Notes under the pieces: model-generated
Database searches by the model: none
What the model saw: the letters and a program-made list of their open reading frames with translations, nothing else
Told to the model about the DNA's origin: nothing
In this document: piece after piece, positions 2,396 through 17,812 of the stretch
Numbering within the stretch: position 1 is the first letter of the stretch
How the letters are laid out: each line of letters starts with the position of its first letter
NCBI GenBank assembly: GCA_903827955.1
Contig: CAIKKJ010000034.1
Span: 2,946-66,945, forward strand
Length of the DNA stretch: 64,000 nucleotides
Direction: 5' to 3'
Origin: an uncultured Verrucomicrobia subdivision 3 bacterium
GTDB taxonomy: Bacteria; Verrucomicrobiota; Verrucomicrobiia; Limisphaerales; UBA11358
Translations under genes and position numbers: made by a program

Positions 2396-2426
2396 ACTTG
2401 ACTGATAACTTGACTGACACTTGACT
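2396..2426 (+). promoter_or_regulatory. three direct repeats of ACTTGACT (starts 2396, 2408, 2419)
   Basis: Period is 11-12 bp and each unit contains the -35-like hexamer TTGACT. Located between repeat copy A and the HEPN gene. Function (operator, iteron or promoter) is not determinable from sequence. Confidence 0.35.
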
Positions 2427-2555
2427 CATCTTTCTTCGGCTGACGGCGTGACCATATTGCCGCCAGCGATGGTTTCTGTTGCAGACATCATCGGTTTCCG
2501 TGATTCTGTGCCTGACCATAAAACTTTTCGGCTGAAGTTAGCGGGTGATCCATTT

Positions 2556-3095
2556 ATGTCGCGTGCATCCAACACATTTCTCGAAGCCATCAAGGACGCG
2601 GAAATCCTGCTCGCACAATTCGATGCCATCAACACGAAGCCGCCACCGCCCCACGCCGAGGTTCTAAAACGCGCCGGACTCATCATGGCTCTTACCGCCT
2701 GGGAAACTTACGTCGAAGACCGGGCTGCTGAAGCGCTGGAAGAACGCATCAAGGCTTTGTCTGGCAGTCCTTTTGCGGATTTGATCAAAAAGAAATTCCA
2801 GAAAGATTTGAAGCGCTTGAACAATCCCAACTCCACCAAGACCTGCAATTTGTTCATGGACTATTTGGGCATGGATATCGCGCAGCATTGGACCTGGACC
2901 AACATGGACGTGAAGATGGTGAAGCAGCGGCTCGACGACCTGCTTGCGAAGCGTGGCAGCGCGGTGCATCGCTCCAAGGCCGCGGCCGCCAGCCCTCAGA
3001 ATGGTCATTTGGTGAAGCGCGAGGAACTCGACAAGGGCATCAAGTTTTTGAAGACGCTGGTGGAGCGAAGTGAAAAGGCGTTCACTTCCGCCTGA
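2556..3095 (+). CDS. HEPN-domain protein (RiboL-PSP-HEPN-like)
   Basis: ORF is open from TTG 2421, but third-position GC rises only after ATG 2556. KRGSAVHRS fits the HEPN Rx4-6H motif. The WETYVEDR helix resembles RiboL-PSP-type HEPN proteins (recollection). Confidence 0.55.
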   Translation: MSRASNTFLEAIKDAEILLAQFDAINTKPPPPHAEVLKRAGLIMALTAWETYVEDRAAEALEERIKALSGSPFADLIKKKFQKDLKRLNNPNSTKTCNLFMDYLGMDIAQHWTWTNMDVKMVKQRLDDLLAKRGSAVHRSKAAAASPQNGHLVKREELDKGIKFLKTLVERSEKAFTSA

Positions 3096-4257
3096 CTTCA
3101 CTCAAGCTTTCGCCGGGCGTCAGGTGCGCCGGCTCTTCGAGGATGTCCAGCAGGGCATTGGCGCAATACACGCGACCACGTTTAGCGTCACCGACTTGCT
3201 TCACGATTTTCAACCGTTCCAGCCGTTCGATGGCGCGTTGCGCCGTGGTAAAGGCAAACCCCAGTTTTTCCGCCGCACCCTTCGCGGTGATGAACGGATT
3301 CGAGGCCAGCAGTTCCACCACGCGCAGCGGCGCGTGGGTGGAGTCGCCGGAGACTGTTTTCTGCCACTCGGCCAGCAGGGCGTTCATGCGGGTCGCCCGG
3401 CTCAAGGCGTCTTCCGACATGCGGGCCACGCCGAGCAGGAAGTATTCGAGCCATTCATTCCATTCGCCCCGCTCGCTGACACCCCGAAGCCCTTCGTAAT
3501 AATCGCGACGCGCCTCTTCAAAAAATGCTGAAAGATACAGCAGCGGTGTCGGCAGGATGCCGCGTTCGATCAGAAAGAGCGTGATGAGCAAACGCCCCAC
3601 GCGGCCATTGCCGTCAAGGAATGGATGAATGGCTTCGAATTGGTAGTGTGCCAGCGCAACGGTCACCAGTGGCGGCAGATCGGAGTCATGCACAAACTTT
3701 TCCCACGCCGCCAGGCAGGGCTCGATTTCAGCCGGTGGTGGCGGCACAAACGAGGCTGTCTCCGGCGTGCTGCCCGGTTTGCCGATCCAGTTCTGGATTT
3801 TGCGGAAGCGTCCGGGCATGGCCCGTTCGCCGCTGACACCGGTCATGAGTTTTTCATGCAGCTCCCGGATGATGCGGATGCACAGCGGCAGATCCTTCAG
3901 GCGCTTGATGCCATGTTCCAGCGCGATGACGTAGTTTCCCACTTCCCGCAAATCTTCGGGACTGCGTTCCACGACCGCGCCGGCTTCCGCCGCCAGCATT
4001 TCGCCGAGCGTCGCCTGTGTCCCTTCAATCTTGCTCGATAGCACGGCTTCCCGTTTTACGAATGGACGCATCAGCACATGCGGATTCGGCAGACGACCGC
4101 CTTCCCCCGCCAGCTTCCCAACCAGACGATCCGCCTCCGACAACACCCGCATCAGCCGCGGAGTCCAGATGATCTTCGGCGGCAAGGGTGCCGGCACAAA
4201 GGCGGCATATTTGCCCAGCGGCACTTTGCGTCCAGGAATGTTTAATTTGCTGGCCAT
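3082..4257 (-). CDS. Fic family protein (AMPylase-type, with N-terminal inhibitory motif and C-terminal wHTH-like tail)
   Basis: HPFLDGNGRVGRLL matches the Fic motif HxFx(D/E)GNGRxxR. SSKIEG matches the inhibitory (S/T)xxxE(G/N) motif. ATG 4257 (MASKLNIPG...) is preferred over the ORF opening at 4302. The 3' end overlaps the HEPN gene by 14 nt, convergently. Confidence 0.85.
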   Translation of the reverse strand: MASKLNIPGRKVPLGKYAAFVPAPLPPKIIWTPRLMRVLSEADRLVGKLAGEGGRLPNPHVLMRPFVKREAVLSSKIEGTQATLGEMLAAEAGAVVERSPEDLREVGNYVIALEHGIKRLKDLPLCIRIIRELHEKLMTGVSGERAMPGRFRKIQNWIGKPGSTPETASFVPPPPAEIEPCLAAWEKFVHDSDLPPLVTVALAHYQFEAIHPFLDGNGRVGRLLITLFLIERGILPTPLLYLSAFFEEARRDYYEGLRGVSERGEWNEWLEYFLLGVARMSEDALSRATRMNALLAEWQKTVSGDSTHAPLRVVELLASNPFITAKGAAEKLGFAFTTAQRAIERLERLKIVKQVGDAKRGRVYCANALLDILEEPAHLTPGESLSEVRRK

Positions 4258-4273
4258 AACGTTGCTTTCGGTC

Positions 4274-4302
4274 GTGATAATAGCACAACCTGCTATTATC
4301 AC
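4274..4302. promoter_or_regulatory. perfect 12-bp inverted repeat GTGATAATAGCA-caacc-TGCTATTATCAC upstream of fic
   Basis: Read directly from the sequence. Lies 17 nt upstream of the fic ATG (4257). Operator-like geometry. Confidence 0.5.
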
Positions 4303-4347
4303 AAAAGCACAAATACGCTAATAGCGGGATTCCTTGTTTTCACGGCT

Positions 4348-4850
4348 AAAATTGAGTTCGCTGCGCTCGACAGAATTTAAGTTCGCGCTGCACTTCGCTC
4401 GCGTGCTCAACAGGAGAACACGAACGCGCTCGGATTCACGGTCTCCACGCTCGAACGTTGTGCGGAGTAATGTTAGATCGCTCCGCTCACAGAATTGTCC
4501 CGCACATCAGGCGCGTGCGCGGACGCCTGACGCTCATGCTGGCGGCGGCGGCTAACGCCACCGCTACGCCAGCACCGGGCCGCCTTCACAGGTTTACGAA
4601 TGGTTTCTCACGGCGGCCCTTTCGCTTCCGCGCGCACGCGTCGAACGTCGCAGGTCATCGAACGGTTTCCGCGCGATCCAACCATTCGGGTTGGCGGATG
4701 ATTTAAGCGCGCGGCCAGGCGGGGAAAAGTTAGTGGATTGCTGACTCGTCGCTGTCGCTCCTCGCGGGGGGCGAACGCGCACTGCGTTTGCGGTCGCCTT
4801 TTTGTTTTCAGAGGCCGCGAGGCTTCGCCACGGCCAAGACACAGCAATAT
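4348..4850. repeat. copy B of the three-copy structured non-coding element
   Basis: Starts AAAATTGAGTTCGC. Paired segments: 4460-4465/4500-4505, 4507-4513/4524-4530, 4538-4552/4557-4573, 4577-4584/4612-4619, 4628-4635/4707-4714. Shares an extra 3' block (CGCGAGGCTTCGCC...CAGCAATA) with copy C only. Confidence 0.8.
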
Positions 4851-6020
4851 CACGCCCAGGCCGGCGGCTTGGGCGTGCCGGCCATGCAACAGTTCCCGGC
4901 TGTCACAGAGCGGACACTTGCGCTCGTGCCTCGCGCCAAGTATCCGCACTGTTCGGCCCGCGCCCGTGACGGACTCGTCAGTTTGCGCCCAAGCTGCCCG
5001 CCGGCTGTTATTGATGTCACGCACCACCAAAGCGATGGAACTTGCCATGTTGGTCAGCTCACAAATCTCCCCGTCCCCTGGTCTCATTTGATCCAGCCAA
5101 GCCCGCAAATTATCATGAACGGGCACAATTCGACGACTGGCCGTCTTTGATTTGGTGACGCGCACTACCACGTAATCTTTTGCCAATTGCAGGTCCGCCC
5201 ACTCCAGCCGTTGGAGTTCCGCATGGCGCACGCCCGCAAAAGCCCCGATCACCATGAATGGCTTAATCCGCTCCGGCGTGAAGCAAAGAATTTCAACCAG
5301 CTCTGCCGGCGTGAAAAATTCGGTTTCCGTCGGCGGCTCTTTGATCGCCGGCACCGCGCATAATTCGTCATGGTCCCGGGGCAAATACCGCCGCCGCATG
5401 GCGTATATGAATAATGAATTGATGGCCTTGCGCAGGTTGTTTTGCGAACACGCCCCCACACCTAGTCCCCGCAGCCACTCATTAATTTCAGGCCCGCGAA
5501 TATCGGTGATGTTCCCCTTGAACCGCTTTGTGAATTGTCCCAAGGCATGGCGCATGGACTTGATATAGCTGTCGGTCAGCAACGCCTCGTCTTTTGAATT
5601 CAGCAACTCCTCCACCACGTCCGCGACGGGCATTTTCAATCGGCCCGGTGCCCACTCCAGAAAGTAATCCACAGCCTCGTGCAAATGCACTGTGCCCAAT
5701 TTCTTCATGGCCTCCGCATACTCCATCGCCGCCGACTGGACACTCACGCCGAGCGGATCCAGATAGAACCGTGCCGCTTTATAGTCCAGCCGGTCGTTGG
5801 GACTTAATTCGAGCACGAGCCCCTCCTGCTTGTCCAATTTACCAGCTACAAATCTGGCCTCTTTTTTAGCTTTTTCAAAATCAGAAAAAACCGTCCGCTT
5901 GCGCATCCTGCCCAGATAATAACTGACAAAATAATCCACCCGTCCCTTATTCATGCAGCGATAGATTTTAACCTGCACGGAGCCTTTTTGGATCACGACT
6001 GGAAATGTTTCATCGTCCAT
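4608..6020 (-). CDS. tyrosine recombinase/integrase, probably 3'-truncated (reading frame runs into repeat copy B)
   Basis: ATG 6020 (MDDETFPVVIQKG...). Catalytic Arg box AFAGVRHAELQRLEWADL and beta-hairpin Lys (VTKSKTASRRIVPV) are present. No HxxR...GH...Y block follows. The last ~90 codons are antisense to repeat copy B and look non-protein-like. Confidence 0.6.
   Translation of the reverse strand: MDDETFPVVIQKGSVQVKIYRCMNKGRVDYFVSYYLGRMRKRTVFSDFEKAKKEARFVAGKLDKQEGLVLELSPNDRLDYKAARFYLDPLGVSVQSAAMEYAEAMKKLGTVHLHEAVDYFLEWAPGRLKMPVADVVEELLNSKDEALLTDSYIKSMRHALGQFTKRFKGNITDIRGPEINEWLRGLGVGACSQNNLRKAINSLFIYAMRRRYLPRDHDELCAVPAIKEPPTETEFFTPAELVEILCFTPERIKPFMVIGAFAGVRHAELQRLEWADLQLAKDYVVVRVTKSKTASRRIVPVHDNLRAWLDQMRPGDGEICELTNMASSIALVVRDINNSRRAAWAQTDESVTGAGRTVRILGARHERKCPLCDSRELLHGRHAQAAGLGVILLCLGRGEASRPLKTKRRPQTQCAFAPREERQRRVSNPLTFPRLAARLNHPPTRMVGSRGNRSMTCDVRRVRAEAKGPP
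4770..4808 (+). terminator. candidate intrinsic terminator inside copy B
   Basis: GGCGAACGC (4770-4778) pairs with GCGGTCGCC (4790-4798) with one mismatch, followed by TTTTTGTTTT. This segment is an insertion specific to copy B. Confidence 0.45.
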
Positions 6021-6150
6021 GCTTGATTTTACAACGCCGCAACCTCTTTTGCAGCCTGTCCCCAGCACTGGGGACAAGACGAAAATTCCCGCTGTGTTAA
6101 TCTAAAGTCGTTGGGAGTAGTGACCCAACCGAAAAACAAGTGTTGAAGAA

Positions 6151-6182
6151 GCCCGGCGTAGTGTCCGGGCTTTTTTCTTTTT
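6151..6182 (+). terminator. intrinsic terminator (GCCCGG-cgtagtgt-CCGGGC + TTTTTTCTTTTT)
   Basis: Hairpin and T-run read directly. No plus-strand gene lies upstream, only two further hairpins (6058-6075, 6104-6128). Confidence 0.6.
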
Positions 6183-6443
6183 ACGAAGCAGTTGCCACCG
6201 CCGGAAACTTCACTGCATCCCGCCATTGCGCCACATCGTCCACGCGCTCCCGCTGATAAATCTGGTGAATCAGTTCCGACGAATGGTTCACCAGCCGCAA
6301 GCCCACCCGATTATCACACGACCCGGCCCATGCCGCTCATCCGAAAATTCTTCCCTTCGGATTTTCGTCCGGTCCGGGCAGCCGGCGTGTTCAGTTTCCG
6401 CTTTCGCTATTTCCGCGTTGAAAATCTGGCCCGTGCGGCGGTT

Positions 6444-7514
6444 TCAAAAGTGAAACTCCGGTTCCGGCGGCGATCCTTTCCGCCGCTTTGGCACCTTGAG
6501 CTTTTCCGCCTCCGCTTTCCAGCGGGCGATCATCTTCTGGATCTGCCCGCACTGGTAACGCATCCGCAGTAAATCATCCATCAACTCGCGCCGTATCTGC
6601 CCGGCCAGCGTCTCATGATCGCTGCGGCGGGAAAAATCCCACGCCGGTTTCCTGCGCTGCTGGGTGATCTGCCGTTTGATTTCGCGCAAGGAAGTTTTCA
6701 ATTGCGCCGTGATCCGTTGCAGCAGCGAGGCGCTGGTGTTCGCGGTGGTGCCGCTTTCACCAATCTCGCAAAGCGTGAGAATGACTTCCAGTTGCTCCGC
6801 GTCGCCCGCTTCGTAGGCAATCTGCGCCTCATGCCACCATTCGGTCTTCTGTGCCGTCATTTCCTGCTGACTGTCCGGATGCAATTGGCGCACCAGCTTT
6901 CGATAAAGTTCCTTGAGCCGTTTGGACGCATGCGGCGGTGGCATTGGCTCGCCCGGCGGTTCGTCCTCGGGACCGAGATAGTCTCGGGGATGCGCATCCG
7001 CCCCGAAACGACGATGGAATTCTTTCTTAATTTTCTCCAGCAGGGGATCCTCGTCGAAGTCTTCAGATTCCGGTCCCGACCCAAAGGCATCCCGCTTCCC
7101 TTCCGCATTGTCGCCGGCGGGCGGGGGAGGCGACGAGCCGGGGTTTTCACGGCGATCCATTACCCGCTGATAGGCCCGCGCGTCGGAAAACCCGCCGAAC
7201 TGGGCCTCATAATCGACCTGTTCGATGAGCAGACTATCCCTTTCCATCTGCAGATTAAGTTCCCGGAGTTCCGTGAGCAGCGCTCCAAAATGACTGTGCA
7301 TCCAGCGCATGAACTGCGGCTCATCCGTCTGGTGAAATTGGTCGAGCACACTCCGCGATTTTGCCAGATCGCGCAACGCCTTCTCGTAGTCCTTCTTGAT
7401 CTTTTTCCGGATGCCCGTGCCATCCACCCGCACCATCGCGCGGCAATGAATGGCCGGTTTGGCATCATCAACGGCTTGGCTGTTGATCGGTTTTCTAGTC
7501 GCGCGGCGTGGCAT
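6444..7514 (-). CDS. J-domain-like protein
   Basis: 356 aa. KELYRKLVRQLHPDSQQE contains the HPD tripeptide in a J-domain-like helix context. The rest is charged and coiled-coil-like. Start not verified. Confidence 0.45.
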   Translation of the reverse strand: MPRRATRKPINSQAVDDAKPAIHCRAMVRVDGTGIRKKIKKDYEKALRDLAKSRSVLDQFHQTDEPQFMRWMHSHFGALLTELRELNLQMERDSLLIEQVDYEAQFGGFSDARAYQRVMDRRENPGSSPPPPAGDNAEGKRDAFGSGPESEDFDEDPLLEKIKKEFHRRFGADAHPRDYLGPEDEPPGEPMPPPHASKRLKELYRKLVRQLHPDSQQEMTAQKTEWWHEAQIAYEAGDAEQLEVILTLCEIGESGTTANTSASLLQRITAQLKTSLREIKRQITQQRRKPAWDFSRRSDHETLAGQIRRELMDDLLRMRYQCGQIQKMIARWKAEAEKLKVPKRRKGSPPEPEFHF

Positions 7515-7658
7515 TGAAGAAAGCGTGGCAAAGTATCACTTCGCCCCCGGTGCCGCCACCACATTACCACACGCCCCGGACAACGGCATTCCTCCCGAAA
7601 ATCATCATGCGGATTTTCGTATTGTCCGGGCATCTGGTAGCCGATCCGGCACGAGCTT

Positions 7659-9326
7659 TCAGCCTTTCAGCAACTTCAGCAATCGCTTCTTGTCCTTCTG
7701 ATTCTTCTTGCCCGTCATACCCTCGATAATTTTCCGCATCTCCGCTTTCTGTTTATCCGCCTCGGCCTCGGTTGCAAGTGGCGCCGCCACCGACACGACC
7801 TTTTCTTCCTCCGCCCCATAGGTCAGCAGCGCCGGCATTGCCTTGTTCAGCGCCGTTCGGAACGCCTCGCGCCCCGGCTGGAAATAATGTTTCAGCACAA
7901 TGTCAGTCGTCTTGTGCCCTGTCACCTTCTGCACCAGTTCCAGCGCCACCCCGGCCGTCAGCGCCAGCGTCACCCACGTCACGCGGAAGCTGTGGAAATC
8001 CCGCACGCTCGCCGATCGCAAGCCATGTTTCCGTTCCACATACAAACCGGCTTTTTCCATGCCGTCTTTCACGCTGTCGCCTTTGTTCGCGTGGCTGGAG
8101 CCGCGCACAATCAGGCACCCGATGGCCTGTTCAATCTCGTTGAGATAACCCGAGACGCTGCCTTTGCTCACATTGACCGCCGCCATTACAGATTGGATGT
8201 TGTTACCATCCATGTAGTGCCGGAACACCATCGCCATCCGGGATCGTTTCTCGCCTTCCGGCAACGCCGCGATGTATTTCTCGCCTCGCTCCCGCGCCAG
8301 CGCGTCGGAAACTTCCGGCAACGCTTTCGTTTCTTCCCCCGCCTCCACTGGTTTTCTGAGCCCCACCGCCAGAATCTTTTTCACGCGCCAGGTGATGCCA
8401 TCCGGGTTTTCATCATACATCTCCGCTTGGTCAGGAAAAACATAACCGGTGAGTTTCGGCCCTGCCTCTTTTGCCAGCTTTTTCAGCTCCGCTGCCAGCA
8501 TGGGGAAAATGGGGATGCTAACGGTCTGACCGGTCTTCGAGGTTTTTACCGTGATGAAATGGTTTTTCAAATCCACATCCTTCCATTCCAGCAGACAACA
8601 ATCCCCGCGCCGCATGGCGGTGCACATTCCCGTGATGATGATCGGCCGAATGAAATCATCGTCCTTCGCCGCCTCATTGATTGCCCCCAGTTCTTCCGGC
8701 GAGAATGGCTGGCGAAACACAGTTTCCGTTTCCTTCGTCGGTGTGTCGGCAAAATGGTTGATGGCGCCCGCCGGCAGCAGATGCTTAAAAGTTGCCCGTA
8801 GCAGCTTGAGCGTGTCATTCCAGGTTTTGCCCGTGACGTGCCGCCCAGCCTCCTCGTCCAGAAAAGACCGGGCCATCGTTCCCGTAACGAAGGCGATTTC
8901 GACCACCTTGGGATTTTTCTTCTGCACGAATTCTACAAACCGGTTTAAGGTGGATTCGCACTGCTTCGCGTAGCGGGCATTCGGCGCTCGTCGCCGCGCA
9001 ATCTTCCCCCATTCCGCCGCTAGGTTTTCCAACTTCACCGACTTGATGGTTTCTCCAGTCTCATGCTCATACAATTTCTTTATCAAACGCACCGCCCCCT
9101 GTTTTGAGCGCGCCTCCTCGACGATTTGATTCAGCTTCGCTTGGGCGGCAACGCGCGAACATTCAAACGCCGTGTCGCCCGCTTCTTTCAGCGATTGGGA
9201 TTGCGGAGGCGTGCCGGCGATTTTAACGCCGAGATTGGCGCAGAATCGTTTGCCATTAATTTCATAACGGCCATACCAGAAGGGACGCAGTTGGCCGCTT
9301 AATTTCCATCGCAATTCGAGGGGCAT
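7659..9326 (-). CDS. tyrosine recombinase/integrase (phage integrase family) with a long insertion in the catalytic domain
   Basis: Catalytic signature is complete: R (TAMRRGDCCLLEW), K (VKTSKTGQTV), HSFRVTW, TGHKT, KHYF. A ~150-aa insert with an HTH-like segment lies between the K and HxxR boxes. Confidence 0.85.
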   Translation of the reverse strand: MPLELRWKLSGQLRPFWYGRYEINGKRFCANLGVKIAGTPPQSQSLKEAGDTAFECSRVAAQAKLNQIVEEARSKQGAVRLIKKLYEHETGETIKSVKLENLAAEWGKIARRRAPNARYAKQCESTLNRFVEFVQKKNPKVVEIAFVTGTMARSFLDEEAGRHVTGKTWNDTLKLLRATFKHLLPAGAINHFADTPTKETETVFRQPFSPEELGAINEAAKDDDFIRPIIITGMCTAMRRGDCCLLEWKDVDLKNHFITVKTSKTGQTVSIPIFPMLAAELKKLAKEAGPKLTGYVFPDQAEMYDENPDGITWRVKKILAVGLRKPVEAGEETKALPEVSDALARERGEKYIAALPEGEKRSRMAMVFRHYMDGNNIQSVMAAVNVSKGSVSGYLNEIEQAIGCLIVRGSSHANKGDSVKDGMEKAGLYVERKHGLRSASVRDFHSFRVTWVTLALTAGVALELVQKVTGHKTTDIVLKHYFQPGREAFRTALNKAMPALLTYGAEEEKVVSVAAPLATEAEADKQKAEMRKIIEGMTGKKNQKDKKRLLKLLKG

Positions 9327-9329
9327 AAT

Positions 9330-9358
9330 AGGTGTCTTTCAAGGGTTAAGAGACACCT
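9330..9358 (-). promoter_or_regulatory. 8-bp stem hairpin (AGGTGTCT...AGACACCT) abutting the integrase start codon
   Basis: Inverted repeat read directly. Ends 3 nt upstream of the ATG at 9326. Could be an operator or a translational hairpin. Confidence 0.3.
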
Positions 9359-9464
9359 AAAACATACAGCAAAACCCCGAACCGATTCAAGGAAAAAACC
9401 AACCAAACCACCAACCATAAGCCCTAAGCTGACACAAAAAGCCATATAAAGCCCATATTTTGCG

Positions 9465-9522
9465 TAAGCTCGTCAGGCTCATAACCTGAAGGTCGTTGGT
9501 TCAAATCCAGCCCCCGCAACCA
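9465..9522 (+). tRNA. tRNA-Met (CAT) 3' fragment: anticodon arm, variable loop, T arm, acceptor 3' strand and CCA; the 5' acceptor strand and D arm are missing
   Basis: Anticodon stem TCAGG/CCTGA (9473-77/9485-89), loop CTCATAA. T arm GTTGG-TTCAAAT-CCAGC (9495-9511). CCCCGCA-A-CCA ends at 9522. The required 5' strand TGCGGGG is absent upstream. Confidence 0.65.
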
Positions 9523-9528
9523 ATTTCC

Positions 9529-9563
9529 GGCCTTGAGACTCACGTTTCAAGGCCGTTTTTGTT
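9529..9563 (+). terminator. intrinsic terminator after the tRNA fragment
   Basis: GGCCTTGA (9529-36) pairs with TCAAGGCC (9547-54), followed by GTTTTTGTT. Confidence 0.7.
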
Positions 9564-9681
9564 GGGTTTTATGAGATTTCCCCGAATTGGCCTCACGCTT
9601 CTGAAAAGTGCCGAACACCCTGAATTGCGCCGGACAAATCACCCACAACCGCACACACAAATCACCCACACACACAATTCG

Positions 9682-10305
9682 TCACTTCATTTCTTTGTTC
9701 GCATCTGCCAAACCGCGTAATTGGCCGTGACGATGAGCAAAAAACCAAAGGCCAACCGCCGCAGCAACAGCGCCCAAAATCAAAAGCTCGTTACCGACGA
9801 TCAGCGACGGAAGCACCATAAGCGCAATGCCGCCGGCCAGAATTGCAACGCTCGTCGTCACGCTGCCGATGATGACTTGCAACGGAGGATAAAAGATGGA
9901 CGCCAGGCCGAACAGGAACATGGCGACGCCGACCCAAACAATTCCCTTGAGGCTCGCCAGCTTTGCGCTCAATTCGCGCGCCGTGTCTTTTTGAGCCGCG
10001 CCCAATTCCGTCTTGGCCCGCGTTTCTTCATGCTCGACGACCGGCATCGGCGCGCTGACAACCACCACTTGGTTGCTGGCGGACTCGAGCCGCGAACCGG
10101 CCGGCACGGTGTAGCTCCGCGTTTTCACCGTCTCTTGATCCTGCCGCGAGGCTTGCGCCGGGTTGTCGCCTTGCACGACGGTTTGACCGATGACACCGGA
10201 CGTGGAGGCGCGGCCACCCTTCAACGGAGCCAGATTGCAGCCGCAGAGCAAACCCGCCGCCGCGATGACAGCAATATCAATCAGCACAAATTTGGTTTTC
10301 GACAT
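9682..10305 (-). CDS. membrane protein, lipoprotein-like N-terminus, three C-terminal TM helices
   Basis: N-terminal AAGLLCGC lipobox-like signal and hydrophobic C-terminal third. Last gene of the head-module operon. Confidence 0.5.
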   Translation of the reverse strand: MSKTKFVLIDIAVIAAAGLLCGCNLAPLKGGRASTSGVIGQTVVQGDNPAQASRQDQETVKTRSYTVPAGSRLESASNQVVVVSAPMPVVEHEETRAKTELGAAQKDTARELSAKLASLKGIVWVGVAMFLFGLASIFYPPLQVIIGSVTTSVAILAGGIALMVLPSLIVGNELLILGAVAAAVGLWFFAHRHGQLRGLADANKEMK

Positions 10306-10307
10306 AA

Positions 10308-10628
10308 TTATTTTCCTTCCTGAAATCGGCGCAGTTCAAACGCGCAGTCATTAAGCGCCGCCGTGTTGTGGTCAATGCAGACGGCCAACTTCATCGCCGT
10401 CTCATTTTGCTTTTCGATGATTTGCGTCAGGGCCGCATGATGCTCGTCGCGCAACGCCTTGTGATCCGAAATCACGGTTTGAAGCTGTTGCACCAGCCAA
10501 TAAATCACCACGCCGCAAACGAGCAGCAGCAGGCAAAACGCCGCGAGAAACAACCAGCGGTCATTCATGCTGGCAGCGTGATCCACCGCTTGGAGAAAAT
10601 CGGCCGTGTTCATATTGGTCATATTCAA
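10308..10628 (-). CDS. small membrane protein (one TM helix + coiled coil)
   Basis: 106 aa. Has the WLFLAAFCLLLLVCGVVIYWLV helix. Start overlaps the stop of the upstream gene by 4 nt. Confidence 0.5.
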   Translation of the reverse strand: MNMTNMNTADFLQAVDHAASMNDRWLFLAAFCLLLLVCGVVIYWLVQQLQTVISDHKALRDEHHAALTQIIEKQNETAMKLAVCIDHNTAALNDCAFELRRFQEGK

Positions 10629-11179
10629 ACGCGTTGCAGTCGCACCATGCCGCTGGTCGCGCTCATCGGCACACCGTATTTCGCCAGCATCACCTGCGCG
10701 ACTTGCGACAAGACCGGACGGCGATCCGTTTTGTCGTAACCGGTTTGGTTGCCACCGGTGTTTTGATATTTCAATCCCTCACCGGCAGGCGCGGCGGTGC
10801 GGTCGGCAATCAAAAGTTCCCGCGCCATTTCACACGTCGCCTGGACAACGGCTTTCGGCACGCTGTCGAAGCGAACGTAATCCGATGGAATCGGCAGCAA
10901 CGCTTGCAGCGGGACATGAATCGCATCGGGTTCAGGACACCGGGCGCGAGGCCATTGCAAACCTTGCACGGCGTTCGCGCGCGTGCCGTTGAACTGAAAT
11001 TCCGCGTCAACCAACCGCGACGCCATCACGAGCGCCACGGCCTTTTGAGCGTCCGTCGCCGCCGTCCATGCCGAGGCGTAAAGATGGCCGTCGTGATAGG
11101 CGTTGCCATCGGTCAAGTCCGCGTAAGCGTTGGCATCCACCAATCCCGCGCCGGTTTCTTTGATCAGGGTGAGCGACAT
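10625..11179 (-). CDS. phage head-tail adaptor-type protein (DnaT-like / gp6-like family)
   Basis: Pattern ANAYADL..GNAY......AWTAATDAQKAVALVMASRLVD..F.F.G.......LQWPR is as I remember it for this phage family. Lies in the capsid operon. Confidence 0.5.
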   Translation of the reverse strand: MSLTLIKETGAGLVDANAYADLTDGNAYHDGHLYASAWTAATDAQKAVALVMASRLVDAEFQFNGTRANAVQGLQWPRARCPEPDAIHVPLQALLPIPSDYVRFDSVPKAVVQATCEMARELLIADRTAAPAGEGLKYQNTGGNQTGYDKTDRRPVLSQVAQVMLAKYGVPMSATSGMVRLQRV

Positions 11180-11188
11180 AAAGTTTAG

Positions 11189-11845
11189 CTAAATGACCGC
11201 AGACCAAGGCGACCAGACGCCGGCCACCTGATAACAGCAGGTGCAGCTTCCAAATTGCTGCGCGCTTTGCGCCTGTGTCGGCGATAAAACATCGTAGGCA
11301 GCGTTCGACTGATCCGCGCTGTCCGCCCAGCCCTGTATGGAACCGGAACCGTCATAGCCGCCATCGTTTTGAGCGAATCGCCAAACGCTCGTAGCCACCG
11401 GCGCGGTGCCCAAGAAATAACCGCCCACGCTCACCAAAGTGGGAGCATCCAGTGGCGCAGGAGCATCGCTCGGATGCACCGCGTTACTGTGTTGAGTGAT
11501 TTCCTTGCCGTCCGCGTCCACGCCGACGATGTAATGTAGTTCCTCGCCATCCGGCGCAAACTGCCGCGCATCGCCATACATCCAATAGCCGGTCGGCAGG
11601 AAATAAGTCGCGCCGCCGTCGAGACTCAGCCAGACATTCCATTTGTAAGGATTCGGCAAGTCCCAATCCCATTGCAGCAAGTCAGGCCAAGCCGCGCGCA
11701 AGACAGGCGGCGGCAACAAATGTCCTTTGCGCCGTTGCTCCGCCAGCCATGTCCGCCGTTGCAGCGGCGTCCAGGGCGCGTTACGGCGCGGCGGTTTTGG
11801 CAGGGCTTGCGACATCGTCAGGCTTGGAAATTTTGGCCGGTTCAA
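11189..11845 (-). CDS. hypothetical phage protein
   Basis: 218-aa ORF in the head operon. Start uncertain (alternative ATG at 11815). No family recognised. Confidence 0.45.
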   Translation of the reverse strand: MNRPKFPSLTMSQALPKPPRRNAPWTPLQRRTWLAEQRRKGHLLPPPVLRAAWPDLLQWDWDLPNPYKWNVWLSLDGGATYFLPTGYWMYGDARQFAPDGEELHYIVGVDADGKEITQHSNAVHPSDAPAPLDAPTLVSVGGYFLGTAPVATSVWRFAQNDGGYDGSGSIQGWADSADQSNAAYDVLSPTQAQSAQQFGSCTCCYQVAGVWSPWSAVI

Positions 11846-11960
11846 CCGCTGGCGTTTTCACCACAGGTTGAACCGGCGCGGTTTTGGTCGGAAGCGGCGG
11901 CGTGGCCTCGATAAAGGGACGCCGCTTTCGCCGAATGATGGGAAACAATTTGTCCATGAA

Positions 11961-12188
11961 TCAGATCGCGTTAGCGCCGATGGCAATTTGTTTCCAGTTT
12001 GTGCCGTCCGAAATGGCGAGGCACGGCACGGAGCCAGTGCCGCCAACGGACAGATAGATCATGCGGCGCGGAAATTTCGCCGCCGTGACGCCAGCAGCGA
12101 CCGCCGCCGCGACGTTGGTAAATGTCGGAATCTGGATTTGTTCACCCGAACGAATCCGCTCGAAACTGCGAGGTTGAAGTTTGCCCAT
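11961..12188 (-). CDS. small hypothetical phage protein
   Basis: ATG 12188 (MGKLQPRSFERIRSGEQIQIPTF...) avoids overlap with the capsid gene. 75 aa. Confidence 0.45.
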   Translation of the reverse strand: MGKLQPRSFERIRSGEQIQIPTFTNVAAAVAAGVTAAKFPRRMIYLSVGGTGSVPCLAISDGTNWKQIAIGANAI

Positions 12189-12238
12189 AATTTTAATTGG
12201 TAAAGCGGCGTGCCGGCGCGAACCGGCACGCCAATGGT

Positions 12239-13249
12239 TCAGATGTTGTGTGTCACGGCCACGACCGGGACGTTTTTGTTTTCCCACACGCGCACCCAGT
12301 TGGCGGCGGTGGCCAGTTCAGCGTTGGTCGGATTTGCACCGGCCACGCTCGCGCTGGTGAACTTCACACCGCGAGGGTGCAGGATGAAGCGGCGACGATT
12401 GACGAGGAACGTGTCGCTGTTGAGAGCGTCACGCGCCATTTCCATGCCTTCCGTGCCGTGACCGCCTTCGACAGGCGCACCGTTCAGATCGGCAAAGCCC
12501 ATACCGAACGCACCGTTGCCGAATAGATAGGTCGTATAGACCACGCCGTCAGTCGTGCCAGCGCGCGACGGGCAGCCGTCATCCACGATGACCCGACGGC
12601 CTTGGAACGTCTTGATTTGAGTTTCACCCTGGCTGTCCGGGATAAAATCAATCAGGTCGAGCTTGCGCAGCGCGGCTTCCACTGCGGAGTGCATCGCCAC
12701 GGCCACGAGCCGGTCGCCACGGTCGCCGAGGCGTTGCGTCGCATCCACGAAGGTTGCGCCGTTAAGCCGGGTGGCCGAGGTTTGCGCCGCGACGCTTTCG
12801 GATTGGATCGCCAACAGATTGCCCGCCATGCTCGCCGCACCGAAAACGCCGGTGAGGGAGTTGATGAGCATATACTGGTTCTGACGGTTCCAGTAATCGG
12901 CGATAAAGTCCGCCAGCGCCAGCGCCGGATCGTCACCGGCAACTTGCGTCGCCAGATGATTCCACGACCACGCATTGCCGTCGTTGTGGATGCGGGCGAT
13001 GTCCTGGTCAGCGACCAGTTTCGCCGGCACGAGCGGTGCCGAATCGGAAAGCGGCTGGCGGTTGCCCGTCAGATCATTCCAGTGGGGCATGTTGACTTGC
13101 GTGCCGCCGAGGGCCGCGCGCTCGTCATAGTCCGGCGTGCGGATGACAATGCCGGATTGAAACAGGTCGGATTTTTCCGCCGTGCGTTGAAGGACGTAGC
13201 CAGCGAATTGCGCTGGCACGATGATGTCTGCAAGTTGTGTCTTTGCCAT
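12239..13249 (-). CDS. major capsid protein (HK97-fold, N4-gp56/T7-like type)
   Basis: 336 aa, directly after the scaffold gene. The N-terminus MAKTQLADIIVPAQFAGYV resembles this capsid family (recollection). Confidence 0.7.
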   Translation of the reverse strand: MAKTQLADIIVPAQFAGYVLQRTAEKSDLFQSGIVIRTPDYDERAALGGTQVNMPHWNDLTGNRQPLSDSAPLVPAKLVADQDIARIHNDGNAWSWNHLATQVAGDDPALALADFIADYWNRQNQYMLINSLTGVFGAASMAGNLLAIQSESVAAQTSATRLNGATFVDATQRLGDRGDRLVAVAMHSAVEAALRKLDLIDFIPDSQGETQIKTFQGRRVIVDDGCPSRAGTTDGVVYTTYLFGNGAFGMGFADLNGAPVEGGHGTEGMEMARDALNSDTFLVNRRRFILHPRGVKFTSASVAGANPTNAELATAANWVRVWENKNVPVVAVTHNI

Positions 13250-13272
13250 AAACTAATTTTGGTGTTGTGACC

Positions 13273-14028
13273 TCACGCGGCGGCTTTCAAACGGGCAGCC
13301 AGCGCAGGATCGGTTTTCTGCAATTTCATTTGCTCCGTGAGATTCCACGTTTCCTTGCGGAACGGGTTTTTCGCGGACCGGTTGCCAGCCCCACCGGAGC
13401 CGGAGCCGGCAGCACCGCTGCCAGCGTTTGCTTCAAACAGGTGCGGCGCGTCGGACACCAACGCATCCACCCATTCGGCCAAAGTCAAAGCAGCCGCGCC
13501 GTCCTTGCCCGTGCGGGCAGTCTGGCCGTCGGCCTCAAAAGCCTGCGGCACGCCGTTGACGAGCTTGAACGTCTGGCGAGCACGCGAAGTGATGTCAGGA
13601 ATCGCCGTCGGCCGCAGACCACGTTTCGTGGCTTCGGTCACGACGGCTTGATCAATCTGAATTGCCGACAAGCGGCCAAGCAGCGTGTCACGCTCGCCGG
13701 TCACGGCGGAAAATTGTTTGTCCCAATCCGTCTTGGCCGTCTTGAGCCGCGCGTCCAAGACCTCTTGAAATTTGCCGTCCTTCAGCCGTTGTTCATCTTC
13801 CAAACGCTGCTTGTCGGCGGCGAGCTGACGCACGGCGTCAGGGTCAATGCCTTCAAACTTCTTGAGCTGGTTCGTCAGCGTGATGTTGTTCTGGCGGAAC
13901 TCATCCAGCTTGGTTTGACTCACGACGCCATCGGCATCCAGCACGAACGCACCGTCGCGCTCGACGTAAAAGGATTGATGTTCAGCAGGGATTTCCTGCT
14001 TCGTTGCATATTTGAATTTCAGGGGCAT
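13273..14028 (-). CDS. phage scaffolding protein
   Basis: 251 aa, lying between portal and capsid. Charged coiled-coil middle, Gly/Ser-rich segment and basic C-terminus. Confidence 0.65.
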   Translation of the reverse strand: MPLKFKYATKQEIPAEHQSFYVERDGAFVLDADGVVSQTKLDEFRQNNITLTNQLKKFEGIDPDAVRQLAADKQRLEDEQRLKDGKFQEVLDARLKTAKTDWDKQFSAVTGERDTLLGRLSAIQIDQAVVTEATKRGLRPTAIPDITSRARQTFKLVNGVPQAFEADGQTARTGKDGAAALTLAEWVDALVSDAPHLFEANAGSGAAGSGSGGAGNRSAKNPFRKETWNLTEQMKLQKTDPALAARLKAAA

Positions 14029-14034
14029 AAACTT

Positions 14035-15558
14035 TTAATTCACGGTTACAGGGTTGGCGTTCACATCACCGGGAACCGTCGGCGTGACGGGAACAGTTGG
14101 TTTGGTTTTCTTCTCGCTGGCGAGCAAGGCTTGCTCTTCTTCGTTCGTGCGACCGGGAGCGATGACCTCGCCAGCACGGAACAGGTTGAGCATCGTGTCC
14201 TGACTGATGGCGCCAGCTTGCCACGCGGAGACGATGGCGCTGATTTCCTGATACGTCATGCCAGCGAAATTGAAATCCGTGTTCAGGCTGGCAAGCACGA
14301 GGTCCGCACCGATGGCGTCAGGAATCGGCTCGGTCGAGTTCCACCAATAGACCCAGCGAAGCACCTGCGTCAGCGACGCGCTGACGCTCAAGGAAATGGT
14401 GTTCAAGATGGAGTTCTCGCCAGATTGACGGAGTTCGATGGCGGCAGCGGTTTCACCGACACGCTTGCGGGATTCGAGCATCCGCGTGCCGAGGACGGCC
14501 ATCAGTTGCTCGTCACGATCCATCGCACGCTCAAAGGTGGACAGACCTTGACCGTGAAATTCCAAGAAGCCAGCCGTGGCACCAGGAGTTTCCGCGACCC
14601 ATGCCGTGCTGCTACCAATGCGCAGCGTCGAAGCCTTGTCAAAGCCACTCACCCAAGCCGTCGGCAGGGCGGTGAAGTGCATACCATGCTTGTAGTCGGC
14701 ATTGAGACGGTAGTGATCGAGGTTGACGGCGATGATGTCTTCCAGCGGAATCTTGTCCACGTCAGGCAGCGAGTGACGCGGGCCGTGAAAGACAAAGGGA
14801 ATCAGCGGCAGAGATTTTCCAAGACGCAGCGGCGTGACGGTTTCAATCAGCTTCCATTCGAGACGTGTGCGAGCACGTTGACCGGAGGTGACGGGATTCT
14901 TGGGCAGCTTGCGCCAGACATCCACTTGATAAGTCCAATCAGTTTGCTCGTCGTTGCTAGACGATTGCGAAGGGACGAGTTTCAGGACGCGCAGTTGCGG
15001 GTAGGCAGTCGGACAGAAGGAGTCAGTGACCGAGGCAGTGTCTTGAAAAGTTTCTTGCAGGACTACCAGCGTCAGGACGTTGCGACCATTCACGCGCTGC
15101 GTCTGCCAGTTGATGATGTTTTCAGCAGCGTAGGCGACAGCATAGGCGCGTGGTTCAGTCTCGTTGTTCCAGTCAATCAGCGTGCCAGCACGACCGACGT
15201 TGATGATTTCCGTGACGAGCTTCTTCGAGAAGGCAGTCAGTGGCGTGCCAAGCATATCGGCATCGGCGACGAACTCAGCAAGCGAAGAACCGACACCGTT
15301 GGACTTGTCGGGCAGTTTGAAGGTTGGATCACGACGGAAGACCAGACCGACGAAGCCATCAGCCGTGCGAGCAGAAGCGTTGAAGAAAGAAGCACGGTTT
15401 TTGTAAGCGAGATATTCCTTGTCGTCCTGACAGTCCAGACGTGGCAGATACTTTTCAGCAGCAGCTTTGACGGCATCCTCACCGGCGAAGACATCACGGG
15501 CACGTTGCCATGCAGCGATGCTGGCGTCGTAATCAGGATGTGTCGAGTCCACTGGCAC
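14035..15558 (-). CDS. phage portal protein (DUF4055-like portal family), copy 2
   Basis: 507 aa with GTG start. Paralogue of 161-1747. First gene of a portal-scaffold-capsid operon. Confidence 0.8.
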   Translation of the reverse strand: MPVDSTHPDYDASIAAWQRARDVFAGEDAVKAAAEKYLPRLDCQDDKEYLAYKNRASFFNASARTADGFVGLVFRRDPTFKLPDKSNGVGSSLAEFVADADMLGTPLTAFSKKLVTEIINVGRAGTLIDWNNETEPRAYAVAYAAENIINWQTQRVNGRNVLTLVVLQETFQDTASVTDSFCPTAYPQLRVLKLVPSQSSSNDEQTDWTYQVDVWRKLPKNPVTSGQRARTRLEWKLIETVTPLRLGKSLPLIPFVFHGPRHSLPDVDKIPLEDIIAVNLDHYRLNADYKHGMHFTALPTAWVSGFDKASTLRIGSSTAWVAETPGATAGFLEFHGQGLSTFERAMDRDEQLMAVLGTRMLESRKRVGETAAAIELRQSGENSILNTISLSVSASLTQVLRWVYWWNSTEPIPDAIGADLVLASLNTDFNFAGMTYQEISAIVSAWQAGAISQDTMLNLFRAGEVIAPGRTNEEEQALLASEKKTKPTVPVTPTVPGDVNANPVTVN

Positions 15559-15695
15559 GAGCGGACTCTAGCACGGGTTTTACAACGATTTTGCCTGACC
15601 CAAAAGACTCACTAGACGGCTGCTGACACAAGATGTCAGCAGATGACCGATGCAGACGGTTTTTTTAAGATTTTGTATTTGACGGGTTTCAAGAT

Positions 15696-16727
15696 TCACG
15701 GATGCACGAGACGAAAGAATTTATTTCCAGTCGAGACAGGAATCGTGACGGTGACGGTGGAAGCATTGCTGCTGATGTTGCCGGTGTAGGCAGTCCAGTT
15801 GGTAGAGCCAAGATTCGTGGTTTGTTGCAGCGAGAAGCCTGATGCTCCCGAAGGCCAGGACAGTGAGAGGTTGGTTCCATTCGAGACGATTCCAGATAAA
15901 GGCGGTGAGACGACCGGCATCGGTTGACCATCCACTTTGGCACGGAGGACAGCAGCGGTGTATGGCGACAGAGACGAAAAGAATGTATATCCGGTGATGG
16001 TTTGAAGTTGGTTGACCGAGACGAGATAGTTTGTCCAAGGTGCAGACCGGATTCCGGCGATGTTCGGGATGTTGACGGCGATGACACGGGTTGCAGTCGT
16101 GATACGATTGGTTGCCATGTCAGTTCCGTTGGTGACGATGACGATGATTTTCCAGACGTTCGACGGAATATAGACCAGACCAGCAGCATTGATTTGATTC
16201 GTCCCGAATCCACTTGGCCCACAGGTTATCAAGACTTCATTTCCCTGTGAGGCAATCGTCCGACAGTAGGTTTCAAGATTTGCCCACACACCCTGATTGT
16301 TGTCCGGTGTCTGCGGAATGATGTTCGACATGAAGAATACCAGGTCGTTGACTTCGACGCTGACAGTTCGATCTCCAGATGGACACATGTGTCCACGGTC
16401 ATATCCCGATCCACTGTAATCCGTGGGTTTGACCTCATAAAAACTTGATGGCAAGTTCGTGTCCAATAAGAAATTTCCACGTCCACTTGAGCCTACGTCG
16501 TCAGTCGTTAAGTCCCAGCTTGCCCAATTTGGTTCCCGAAGATTGTCGTTGTAGTCTAGGGCTTCGGCGGCGCGTTGAATCAGATAGTGACTGTGGTTAT
16601 TCGTGTCAGACGTGGCGTTGCTGGGATTGCCAAGTTGCATTTGAAATTCGGTCCCGATTTTGGCGTGAGCAGAAAAGACGTTGATGGCAAAGAGAAGCAC
16701 GCTGGCGGTGAGCCAGCTTTTCGTCAT
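15696..16727 (-). CDS. secreted DNA/RNA non-specific endonuclease (Serratia NucA / DRGH family) with C-terminal beta-sandwich-like domain
   Basis: SGYDRGHMCPSGDR carries the DRGH active-site motif and NIIPQ..DNN follows. Signal peptide MTKSWLTASVLLFAINVFSAHA from ATG 16727. GC is visibly lower than in the neighbours. Confidence 0.8.
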   Translation of the reverse strand: MTKSWLTASVLLFAINVFSAHAKIGTEFQMQLGNPSNATSDTNNHSHYLIQRAAEALDYNDNLREPNWASWDLTTDDVGSSGRGNFLLDTNLPSSFYEVKPTDYSGSGYDRGHMCPSGDRTVSVEVNDLVFFMSNIIPQTPDNNQGVWANLETYCRTIASQGNEVLITCGPSGFGTNQINAAGLVYIPSNVWKIIVIVTNGTDMATNRITTATRVIAVNIPNIAGIRSAPWTNYLVSVNQLQTITGYTFFSSLSPYTAAVLRAKVDGQPMPVVSPPLSGIVSNGTNLSLSWPSGASGFSLQQTTNLGSTNWTAYTGNISSNASTVTVTIPVSTGNKFFRLVHP

Positions 16728-16985
16728 TTTGTTTGTGGCGTTTCGGTTCAAGCTGCGAACGATTAGGATAGCACAATTCGCGATGTTGTCTTTAAGCATT
16801 TCGACGATTCAATTTTCGGCAGCAATCGAGAAGTTTGGTTTAAGATTTTTTCATCTTTTGACCCCGGTAATTTTTTTGCGTGTGATAATTCGTGAGACTT
16901 TTATTTTTCGACACGGGCGACCAGATGAAGTTGTGTGTCGTGGGCAATGTGAATGTTTGTGGTAATTCGGATGCGCTCGAAAGAC

Positions 16986-17388
16986 AAAGTTAGTTCGCGT
17001 TGCTCAACAGATAATTCAGTTCGCGCTTTGCTCTGCGACGCACTCATCCAACACGAACGCGCGCAACCATTCACGGTTTCCATTTGCGAACGTCATCAGG
17101 CGCGTGCGCGGATGCCTGACGCTCATGCTGGCGGCGGCGGCTAACGCCACCGCGACGCCAGCACCGGCACGCCTTCACTGGTTTACGAAAGTCACACTCG
17201 GCGTGCCTTTCGCTACAGCGCGCACGCGGCGGACATCGCAGGTTGGCGAATGTTTGCAGCGCGATTTAACCATTCAGGTTGGCGGATGATTTAGCGCGCT
17301 GTCAGGCAATGAAACCTCGTCGCTATCGCCGAAGACGAAAGCATTAGCATCGCGAGGCTTCGCCCGATGCAAGGCATCAGCAATAGTC
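16986..17388. repeat. copy C of the three-copy structured non-coding element
   Basis: Starts AAAGTTAGTTCGC. Paired segments: 17096-17102/17113-17119, 17127-17141/17146-17162, 17166-17173/17200-17207, 17216-17223/17294-17301. Lacks the 46-nt hairpin present in copies A and B. Confidence 0.8.
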
Positions 17389-17812
17389 GCGGCGACGGTC
17401 CAGCTTTCGGTCGCTTCGCTGCTCGCCGGTGCGGCTCGCACCTACGCTCCCGAAACTGGCCGCCCCCGCTGGAAAAACCAAATCAGTCCGAGACCCCGGC
17501 GCAGGGTTTCGTTGGCCTGCTGGCTCAGGTTTGACCCTGTCCCCCGCAAACTGGCCATCATTCCACTAGACCCAACGCCGGGGACTCAGAGAAATTGGCA
17601 CCGCGCTATCGCGACTGTGCCGGGAAACGAAGTGACCCGGCAAAAAAATTGAAGCGGCTCCGCTCACGGGGTTGGCATGACGGAACATCTCCGGCTACGG
17701 TGCTCGTGCCTGCGCGCCTGTGCCTCCGATTTGCTTCCGAGACATTCACACAACACATATTGTGTGTTTGGTCGGTGAAACCACGCCGACACCTCCCACA
17801 TAAATTCTGATC

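Follow-up and report, generated by a model that had tools for sequence, protein, structure and literature searches.

Phages and phage satellites encode large structured non-coding RNAs, such as the P4 CI RNA and leader, HK022 put, phi29 pRNA and GOLLD/ROOL. Phage satellites and temperate phages also possess defense hotspots, represented by P4/P2-type loci and by the slots of phage-inducible chromosomal islands (PICIs), in which variable defense genes are held between conserved flanks. Capsid-forming PICIs (cfPICIs) have been described in Proteobacteria and Firmicutes, and most satellites in the SatelliteFinder survey of 2023 come from the same two phyla (PMC10085698). Another kind of folded element, Frpo/ssi of plasmid leading regions, is a single long hairpin mimicking a double-stranded promoter (PMC11541004). 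The sequence analyzed here is a 64,000-nt stretch of contig CAIKKJ010000034.1 from an uncultured Verrucomicrobia subdivision 3 bacterium, referred to below as the window (all coordinates are window positions, position 1 being its first letter). It contains three direct copies of a ~380-nt conserved folded non-coding element, designated A (1902–2327), B (4333–4760) and C (16960–17331), and this element is internal to small (about 17–20 kb) capsid-encoding integrative islands of Limisphaerales.

An earlier note on this DNA had reported three copies and a gene order running from a first portal gene to a truncated kinase, both of which we confirm, and had interpreted the element as an attachment site; the observation is correct, and the interpretation is refuted by the data presented below. 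We hold with considerable confidence a combined explanation in which the element is an internal folded part of an island, the window is a tandem array of two such islands that have probably undergone deletions, and copies A and B are an old doublet; that the element acts in cis as a structured RNA is a more tentative part of it. No description of the element, or of the DUF6573 family encoded by one of the neighboring island genes, was found in the literature.

All three copies share one orientation, span ~380–430 nt and are recovered by nhmmer with the family profile at 264.6 bits (A, model positions 11–378), 310.6 bits (B) and 375.5 bits (C, model positions 4–378). A 36-nt core pattern occurs three times in the window and in none of 100 shuffles. 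Related loci (L001 onwards) were collected by three independent routes: the portal protein against viral contigs (L001–L011); a gene-independent DNA pattern from the element core, which returned seven viral loci and 32 loci from one-genome-per-species contigs (185,579 species genomes); and the protein p207 against metagenome contigs (L067–L146, a further 115 p207-positive metagenome stretches being left out). True copies of the element are present in 30 of the 32 species-genome loci, most of them in metagenome-assembled genomes (MAGs) of Verrucomicrobia subdivision 3/Limisphaerales. The earlier note expected relatives to reveal an empty site; none of these 30 loci is a lone copy with host genes on both sides. 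All copies recovered adjoin island genes or conserved island non-coding sequence, or sit at a contig end or in a remnant, and those that have no portal gene in the fetched stretch belong to contig ends, remnants or island variants. A host non-coding RNA gene used as attB was rejected as a candidate, since no host or empty-site copy was found. A looser DNA pattern applied to viral contigs yielded only one more family member (L147), together with three chance matches; the family is therefore narrow.

The element has a fixed place relative to the portal gene. Upstream sequence of 2.5 kb or more was available for 46 portal homologs, from Limisphaerales MAGs, viral contigs and metagenomes, and in 40 of them the element lies no more than 3 kb upstream (130–2748 nt), always in the same relative orientation. 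This bears out a fallback reading of the earlier note, according to which a phage-like family carries its own structured element beside the portal gene. The clearest intact layout is that of L013, a 39.9-kb viral contig, which presents capsid, scaffold and portal genes, cargo, the element, ~1.5 kb with no convincing open reading frames (ORFs), four small genes (among them e137 and e153, the latter encoding a DUF6573 protein), then convergent TerL, TerS, a primase-like gene, a 354-aa gene and a complete tyrosine integrase. L013 is the only relative showing both the element and the integrase, which are ~8 kb apart; the primase-like gene is located 4–5 kb from the element. The order TerS/TerL, e153/e137, non-coding sequence, element, (cargo), portal is repeated in more than 15 loci, and the element is therefore internal to the island.

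Pieced together from such loci, none of which holds a complete island in one piece, the intact island reads: tRNA (att), p207, p106, adaptor, p218, p108, capsid, scaffold, portal, cargo slot, element, ~700 nt of non-coding sequence, a long hairpin, e137 and the DUF6573 gene, TerL, TerS, primase-like gene, integrase and a tRNA fragment. Profile matches support the integrase, TerL (Terminase_6N), portal, scaffold, capsid and Ad1 adaptor; TerS and the primase-like gene have no Pfam match and are assigned by position and reading only. In the 8–20-kb stretches read, neither the interval from the adaptor/p207 to the tRNA/host junction nor that separating integrase and terminase contains a tail gene.

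The attachment site of these islands is provided by a tRNA gene. Alignment of the spacer between int-2 and p207 with L033 revealed that positions 9467–9522 (plus strand) are identical to the 3′ 56 nt of the complete tRNA-Met(CAT) of that locus. The fragment lies 141 nt from the start codon of int-2 (7659–9326, minus strand), an apparently intact tyrosine integrase (Pfam Phage_integrase, 1.1e-12; PHROG integrase, 1.1e-35), and separates it from p207, the last gene of the head module. It is followed by a hairpin and a T-run resembling a terminator (9527–9561, plus strand), nearly identical in L033, L079 and L072. ARAGORN called no tRNA in the window, because the fragment is partial. In L033 (5720–5796), L072 and L079 a complete tRNA-Met immediately adjoins the p207 homolog and is followed on its other side by host genes (FtsY and RecG in L033, an MsrA-like gene in L072); tRNA-Asn in L126 and tRNA-Ser in L136 occupy the same junction position.

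Since complete tRNAs are found at the junction and an identical fragment is found in the window, we assign the att site of the family to the tRNA 3′ end at the p207 end of the head module, rather than to the element as the earlier note had done. Both hallmarks of a tRNA-targeting island are present, namely a partial duplicate of the tRNA 3′ part beside a tyrosine integrase and a complete tRNA at the island/host junction. Judged by its sequence, the arrangement of int-2, tRNA fragment and p207 appears to be attP-like. Neither int-2, which has no close relatives in the viral collection, nor the tRNA fragment had appeared in the earlier note.

As the evidence largely establishes, two decayed islands, related but not the same, stand in tandem in the window and are joined at this tRNA-Met fragment. 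An internal junction of a two-island array is the simplest reading because of the attP-like arrangement and the different portal/capsid sets on either side of it. Portal-1 (161–1747, minus strand; Pfam DUF4055) is only 60% identical to portal-2, and two independent contigs (L050 and L051) carry a protein identical to portal-1 followed by scaffold and capsid genes.

Island 1 would consist of portal-1, copy A as its portal-proximal copy, a HEPN and SoFic cargo pair, copy B as its distal copy, a non-coding stretch NC′, a breakpoint, the truncated integrase int-1′, a DnaJ-like gene and int-2. NC′ (4761–4997) corresponds to the initial ~240 nt of the conserved non-coding sequence that flanks the element, is collinear with L031, L045, L027, L041 and L046, and contains a terminator-like site after copy B (4781–4806, plus strand) and a covarying hairpin block (4895–4986). 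The DnaJ-like gene (6444–7514, minus strand) encodes a 356-aa protein with a weak DnaJ-like stretch (Pfam DnaJ, 9.7e-05, under the curated cut-off) and keeps the same gene order in independent assemblies.

Island 2 would extend from p207 through portal-2, a nuclease gene, copy C and a second non-coding stretch NC″ to a further breakpoint, beyond which the truncated kinase gene begins. Its head module (9682–15558, minus strand; Pfam and PHROGs) contains p207 (a lipoprotein/membrane protein), p106, the Ad1 head–tail adaptor (10625–11179), p218, p108, the major capsid gene (12239–13249), the scaffold gene (13273–14028) and portal-2 (14035–15558), an order kept in more than 40 loci. The nuclease gene (15696–16799, minus strand; Pfam Endonuclease_NS, 3.8e-47) encodes a secreted DNA/RNA non-specific endonuclease and represents cargo in the portal–element slot, where L001 has a homolog as well. 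NC″ (17323–17826) is conserved island non-coding sequence with blastn matches to more than 25 island loci. The kinase gene (17813–18742, plus strand) is a host gene encoding a histidine kinase that has lost its N-terminus, the match covering GAF profile positions 75–131 only, followed by HATPase_c. Terminase, early and replication genes are missing from both islands within the window: no homologs of TerL, TerS, the primase-like gene, e137 or e153 occur anywhere in it.

Comparison with relatives locates two breakpoints. Downstream of the element, L031, L045, L027, L041 and L046 match 4770–4811, then a ~90-nt block corresponding to 4895–4990 (up to 99% identity), and then 17323–17825. The window is collinear with these loci up to ...CAGTTTGCGCCC (~4997) and there switches to int-1 coding sequence. 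The earlier note listed an integrase gene at this place; an ORF does exist (4608–6077, 489 aa), but the gene is truncated, and only about aa 1–360 (int-1′, 4998–6077, minus strand) are integrase. The match covers Phage_integrase profile positions 3–81 of 172 only, the alignment to the L013 integrase ends at int-1 aa 348 (L013 aa 340 of 420), and the HxxR and Tyr boxes are missing. The rest of the ORF comes from reading through non-coding sequence and copy B; it stays open by chance for ~125 codons (4608–4997) through island non-coding sequence into the copy, and gives rise to spurious tblastn "integrase" matches on element copies in many loci.

On the other side, copy C runs straight into NC″, and similarity to island sequence ends at ~17826. 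The earlier note described ~420 nt of non-coding DNA followed by a truncated host kinase. The kinase is indeed truncated and the ~480 nt between copy C and the kinase gene hold no ORF, but the DNA to the right of C is conserved island sequence. NC″ ends at the apex of a long covarying hairpin, of which only the 5′ arm (17698–17826) is present in the window (nhmmer covers model positions 2–117 only), and the kinase ORF begins there. None of eight aligned relatives has a junction at this position.

We infer from these comparisons that both breakpoints, 4997 and 17826, are deletions. The first would reach from the non-coding flank of B into int-1 and would have removed the early/terminase/primase block of island 1. 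The second would begin at the hairpin apex and would have taken away the corresponding block of island 2, everything beyond it up to and including the att end of that island, and part of the kinase gene; the kinase would be truncated because some host DNA was lost as well. The apex of this ~150-nt hairpin may be fragile or recombinogenic. In independent assemblies the gene order from int-1 to portal-2 is unchanged, and the contigs break at the repeats: Logan contigs L052–L054 end at int-1 aa ~354–357 (~4997), and a 34.5-kb contig and L050/L051 end in B. Extension to the left via portal-1 returned only 5–7.6-kb contigs breaking inside copy B.

Several points weigh against this reconstruction of the array. 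The relatives from which the deletions are deduced are only ~70–90% identical to the window, and an ancestral sequence of the strain was not at hand. The left part of island 1, with its expected complete tRNA, falls outside the window. A metagenome assembly is the probable source, and repeats in such an assembly can give chimeric joins; the sole long independent contig (34.5 kb) was compared by gene order only. The tail-less appearance of the islands, too, applies to the stretches read.

Copies A and B form a doublet, and doublets occur in 11 loci, taking two forms. In the first, element, cargo, element and portal follow one another (window, L031, L041, L134 and L139), the cargo being SoFic+HEPN, a PDC-S27-like ATPase, SRAP or another Fic. 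In the second, two copies of the element enclose e137/e153 (L077, L079, L109, L136 and L140; also L078 and L113); the distal copy of this form is devoid of the first ~60 nt of the element. A tendency of the copies to bracket small gene cassettes, suggested earlier, is thereby substantiated. Across loci, proximal copies are 89–95% identical to one another and distal copies 86–92%, versus 63–80% for partners within the same locus. Because the proximal and distal lineages are orthologous across genomes, the A/B duplication is old and position-specific and was not made by integration here. The doublet is common to other genomes and brackets a variable slot for defense and accessory cargo.

Mosaic similarity between A, B and C, noted previously, is real; however, it does not reflect hybrid att sites, being family-wide and old, with B showing 86–88% identity to copies of other genomes. 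B and C are 96% identical within one hairpin, which represents the commonest variant of the family, the version of B being 100% identical in four other genomes. An optional hairpin is common to A and B and missing from C, and in the 5′ block A and C are the closest pair. Over its whole length B is 88% identical to L045, 84% to L031a and 83% to L039, versus 63% to A and 65% to C; compared with the distal copies of L045, L031 and L134 it reaches 86–88%, versus 63–71% with A and 65–78% with C. Copy C is 79% identical to L003, L048 and L018, and the nearest relatives of copy A are portal-proximal copies and L037. Element segments are shuffled among lineages.

In the window, the slot between A and B contains a HEPN (RiboL-PSP) gene (2421–3095, plus strand; PF18735, E 1e-21) and a Fic gene (3082–4302, minus strand; Pfam Fic_N and Fic) encoding a SoFic-type defense protein (PADLOC SoFic, full-length, E 1.7e-115); the two convergent genes overlap by 14 nt. 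In relatives the same slot harbors a PDC-S27-like ATPase (L031), a type IV restriction endonuclease-like gene (L039), SRAP (L041) or a nuclease. Since its contents vary among defense-type genes, the slot looks like a defense hotspot. As a side effect, the conserved copies would supply homology for swapping the cargo between them.

Strong covariation indicates that the element is folded. In its 220-nt 3′ domain, examined in 33 distinct copies, nine helices comprise 46 pairs, and 97% of cells are paired, falling to 32–48% when partners are slid by 1–3 columns. Cells with double changes number 108, compared to 29 ± 4 in shuffles. The 5′ ~100 nt are less structured and contain two direct repeats GTTCGC...GCTCAAC. 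The conserved ~150-nt hairpin mentioned above (32 pairs, 10 of them covarying) shares the strand of the element, at a distance of about 700 nt, and was detected at window positions 17698–17826, at 1075–1277 of L031 and in 22 other loci; further covarying helices are located between it and the element.

Over the whole ~1.3-kb module, RNAalifold on 20 complete modules predicts 149 pairs, of which 62 have double changes (278 cells). Portal coding sequence of similar divergence, used as a control, gives 123 predicted pairs with double changes in 9 (22 cells), so that the module is ~12-fold higher. The covariation reveals selection on base pairing within one strand. Rfam 15 produced no match at gathering score on the whole window, and only chance-level matches (E ≥ 1.9) on the copies and two intact modules. 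A promoter/terminator scan found no sigma-70-like promoter in or beside the copies, and only the terminator-like site after B exceeded the shuffle expectation.

Which strand is read is a matter on which we lean towards the window minus strand, co-directional with the portal gene. Folding energy z-scores of the 220-nt cores favor it in 14 of 17 cases, and likewise for copy A, and one position of a robust hairpin alternates between C-G and C·A on the plus strand, equivalent to C-G and U·G on the minus strand. On the minus strand each copy lies 30–190 nt upstream of a gene: A ~170 nt before portal-1 (its conserved block, from 1919 on, is 172 nt away from the portal-1 start), B within 100 nt of the Fic gene, and C ~160–185 nt before the nuclease gene. 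An initial plus-strand call for the window, made from a G·U:A·C ratio of 48:7, was withdrawn, since the structure had been predicted on that strand. Other observations speak against the minus strand or against an RNA: pairs predicted on both strands show no G·U/A·C bias, on the plus strand the element would head the e137/e153 genes and the terminator-like site follows B, and the covariation fits RNA and single-stranded DNA (ssDNA) alike.

Regarding function, we hypothesize that a structured RNA of up to ~1.3 kb is transcribed between the terminase/early block and the portal gene, and that the element is its most strongly conserved domain. We tentatively propose, as a quite possible role, control in cis over how the neighboring cargo and head genes are expressed; the element could serve, for example, as a leader controlling termination/antitermination, processing or stability.

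The earlier note offered a different account, in which B and C are hybrid attL and attR sites of a mobile 12-kb integrase-to-portal element, and serial integrations into a structured RNA gene serving as a hotspot built the array. Such a scheme explains why full-length copies stand at both ends of an interval with integrases and a head module, why similarity between the copies is mosaic and why B abuts the 3′ end of an integrase-like ORF. However, the B–C interval is no mobile unit: it holds the junction of two islands, with the tRNA-Met att fragment and an intact integrase inside it, while its left breakpoint falls outside B, ~240 nt beyond the copy, and cuts int-1, and ~500 nt of island sequence follows C. 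Intact relatives have a single copy of the element, well away from the integrase; where the note would have an integrase beside it, L013 has one only at the distance given above, and more than 15 other loci have e137/e153 and terminase genes there. The doublets are old and orthologous across genomes, and the gene-independent pattern gave neither an empty site nor a host copy in its 30 loci. In place of the supposed hotspot there is a tandem array of two decayed islands of the ordinary, tRNA-targeted kind, and attachment through the element is hardly credible.

Recombination at the element could also be envisaged on a smaller scale, with a circle carrying cargo and one copy inserting into a resident copy by means of a site-specific recombinase or homologous recombination. 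The 11 doublet loci do bracket differing contents (SoFic+HEPN, SRAP, the PDC-S27-like ATPase, another Fic, e137/e153), all copies are in the same orientation, and the shuffling of element segments among lineages would be expected. We nevertheless consider a cassette site very unlikely: the proximal and distal lineages (86–95%) against same-locus partners (63–80%) imply that insertions are not recent and that copies are not homogenized, no recombinase is consistently linked to doublets, and single-copy islands also exchange cargo, in the portal–element slot.

The element could alternatively act at the DNA level, as a single- or double-stranded site: a replication origin or a priming site used by the primase-like protein, a pac/cos packaging region, or a folded single-strand promoter of the Frpo/ssi type for the neighboring cassette genes. 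Covariation attests intrastrand pairing and does not tell RNA from ssDNA, the direct repeats of the 5′ block could bind a protein, and the element lies between the terminase and portal genes. A PurA-like gene for an ssDNA/RNA-binding protein often abuts it, and the e137/DUF6573 genes are of a kind that we take to be seen on conjugative elements. The single orientation ahead of cassettes furthermore recalls the Frpo arrays of plasmid leading regions (PMC11541004). However, instead of one long hairpin with −35/−10 boxes the element forms a multi-branched fold with long-range helices, and the copies have no sigma-70-like promoter in or beside them. The distance of 4–5 kb to the primase-like gene likewise disfavors a priming site. 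Moreover, islands packaged in capsids would be expected to arrive in the cell in double-stranded form, and we know of no pac/cos site that needs ~150 conserved base pairs over 1.3 kb. A DNA-level role is thus unlikely in our estimation.

Returning to a transcribed element, the proposal may be extended: together with its ~900-nt flank, it could form one ~1.3-kb multi-domain structured RNA of capsid-forming Verrucomicrobiota islands, a new "ornate" class placed between terminase and portal. We regard this extension as unlikely. If it holds, the RNA might take part in head assembly or packaging (in a pRNA-like manner), helper-phage take-over, anti-defense or late-operon control, perhaps together with the PurA-like protein.

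The PurA-like gene (PF04845) directly abuts the element in at least eight loci, on either side: on the portal side in L024, L035, L038, L040, L048 and L112, and on the other side in L031 and L026; the window copies have no such neighbor. In L040 (866–6901) the element is followed by the PurA-like gene, a gene for a 582-aa large serine recombinase and then nitrogenase-like host genes, which suggests a variant with a different integration module and site. L025 and L029, binned as Bifidobacteriaceae MAGs, carry a Limisphaerales-type island (element and portal, 59–67% identity), probably as a result of mis-binning. Within the head module, the p108 ORF (11961–12287) and the 3′ end of the major capsid gene have ~46 nt in common, an overlap that tblastn also reveals in most relatives having both genes; p108 may represent either a true overlapping gene or the product of a frameshift. 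The membrane proteins p106 and p207 could be encoded by lysis genes.

The present data add an undescribed, strongly covarying non-coding element, part of a ~1.3-kb module, that is present in most members of the family and flanks a defense-gene slot, and they provide evidence for capsid-encoding, apparently tail-less, cfPICI-like islands in Verrucomicrobiota. If the module is a functional large RNA, it would constitute a new class linked to capsid-forming satellites and would offer a handle on the timing of head-gene and cargo expression by islands.

Among known systems, the islands resemble cfPICIs in gene content. Both are small integrative islands with integrase, TerL, portal, scaffold, major capsid and head–tail adaptor genes and accessory or defense cargo, the islands described here having putative TerS and primase-like genes as well, and no tail genes were seen in the stretches read here. 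The tail-less, cfPICI-type appearance is shared by L013, L033, L072, L079, L004 and window positions 9682–15558. The differences concern gene order, the Verrucomicrobiota host and the HNH and protease genes, neither of which was identified here; the window copies, in addition, are missing terS, terL and the primase-like gene of the cfPICI set. To our knowledge, a 1.3-kb structured non-coding module between terL and portal is not a described feature of cfPICIs.

As a strongly base-paired non-coding region of a mobile element, located at the head of an operon and near the portal gene, the element recalls the P4 CI RNA and leader, HK022 put, phi29 pRNA and GOLLD/ROOL. The module falls in the same size range as the large "ornate" RNAs but matches no Rfam family in sequence or structure; membership in the pRNA family was rejected. 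With Frpo/ssi the element shares a length of a few hundred nucleotides, folding, several copies in one orientation and a position ahead of anti-defense/establishment cassettes. Identity with them was rejected, as the element is multi-branched and has no promoter-like site in its copies, and no single-stranded entry stage is known for capsid-borne islands. Integron attC sites are 57–141-nt imperfect palindromes recognized by an IntI integrase; this candidate was rejected too, the element being ~380 nt long, complex in fold and highly conserved in sequence, with no IntI-type gene linked to it.

The integration pattern agrees with the known targeting of tRNA genes by tyrosine integrases with formation of tandem arrays: an integrase lies beside a duplicated tRNA 3′ fragment, a complete tRNA marks the other island end in relatives, and an attP-like junction would separate the tandem units. 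Here, however, both units are devoid of their terminase/replication halves, and the outer ends of the array are located outside the window. Finally, the cargo slot shares with P4/P2-type hotspots and PICI accessory slots a fixed position between conserved flanks and a variable set of defense genes, and differs from them in its flanks, one or both of which are formed by copies of a structured non-coding element and not by protein-coding genes.

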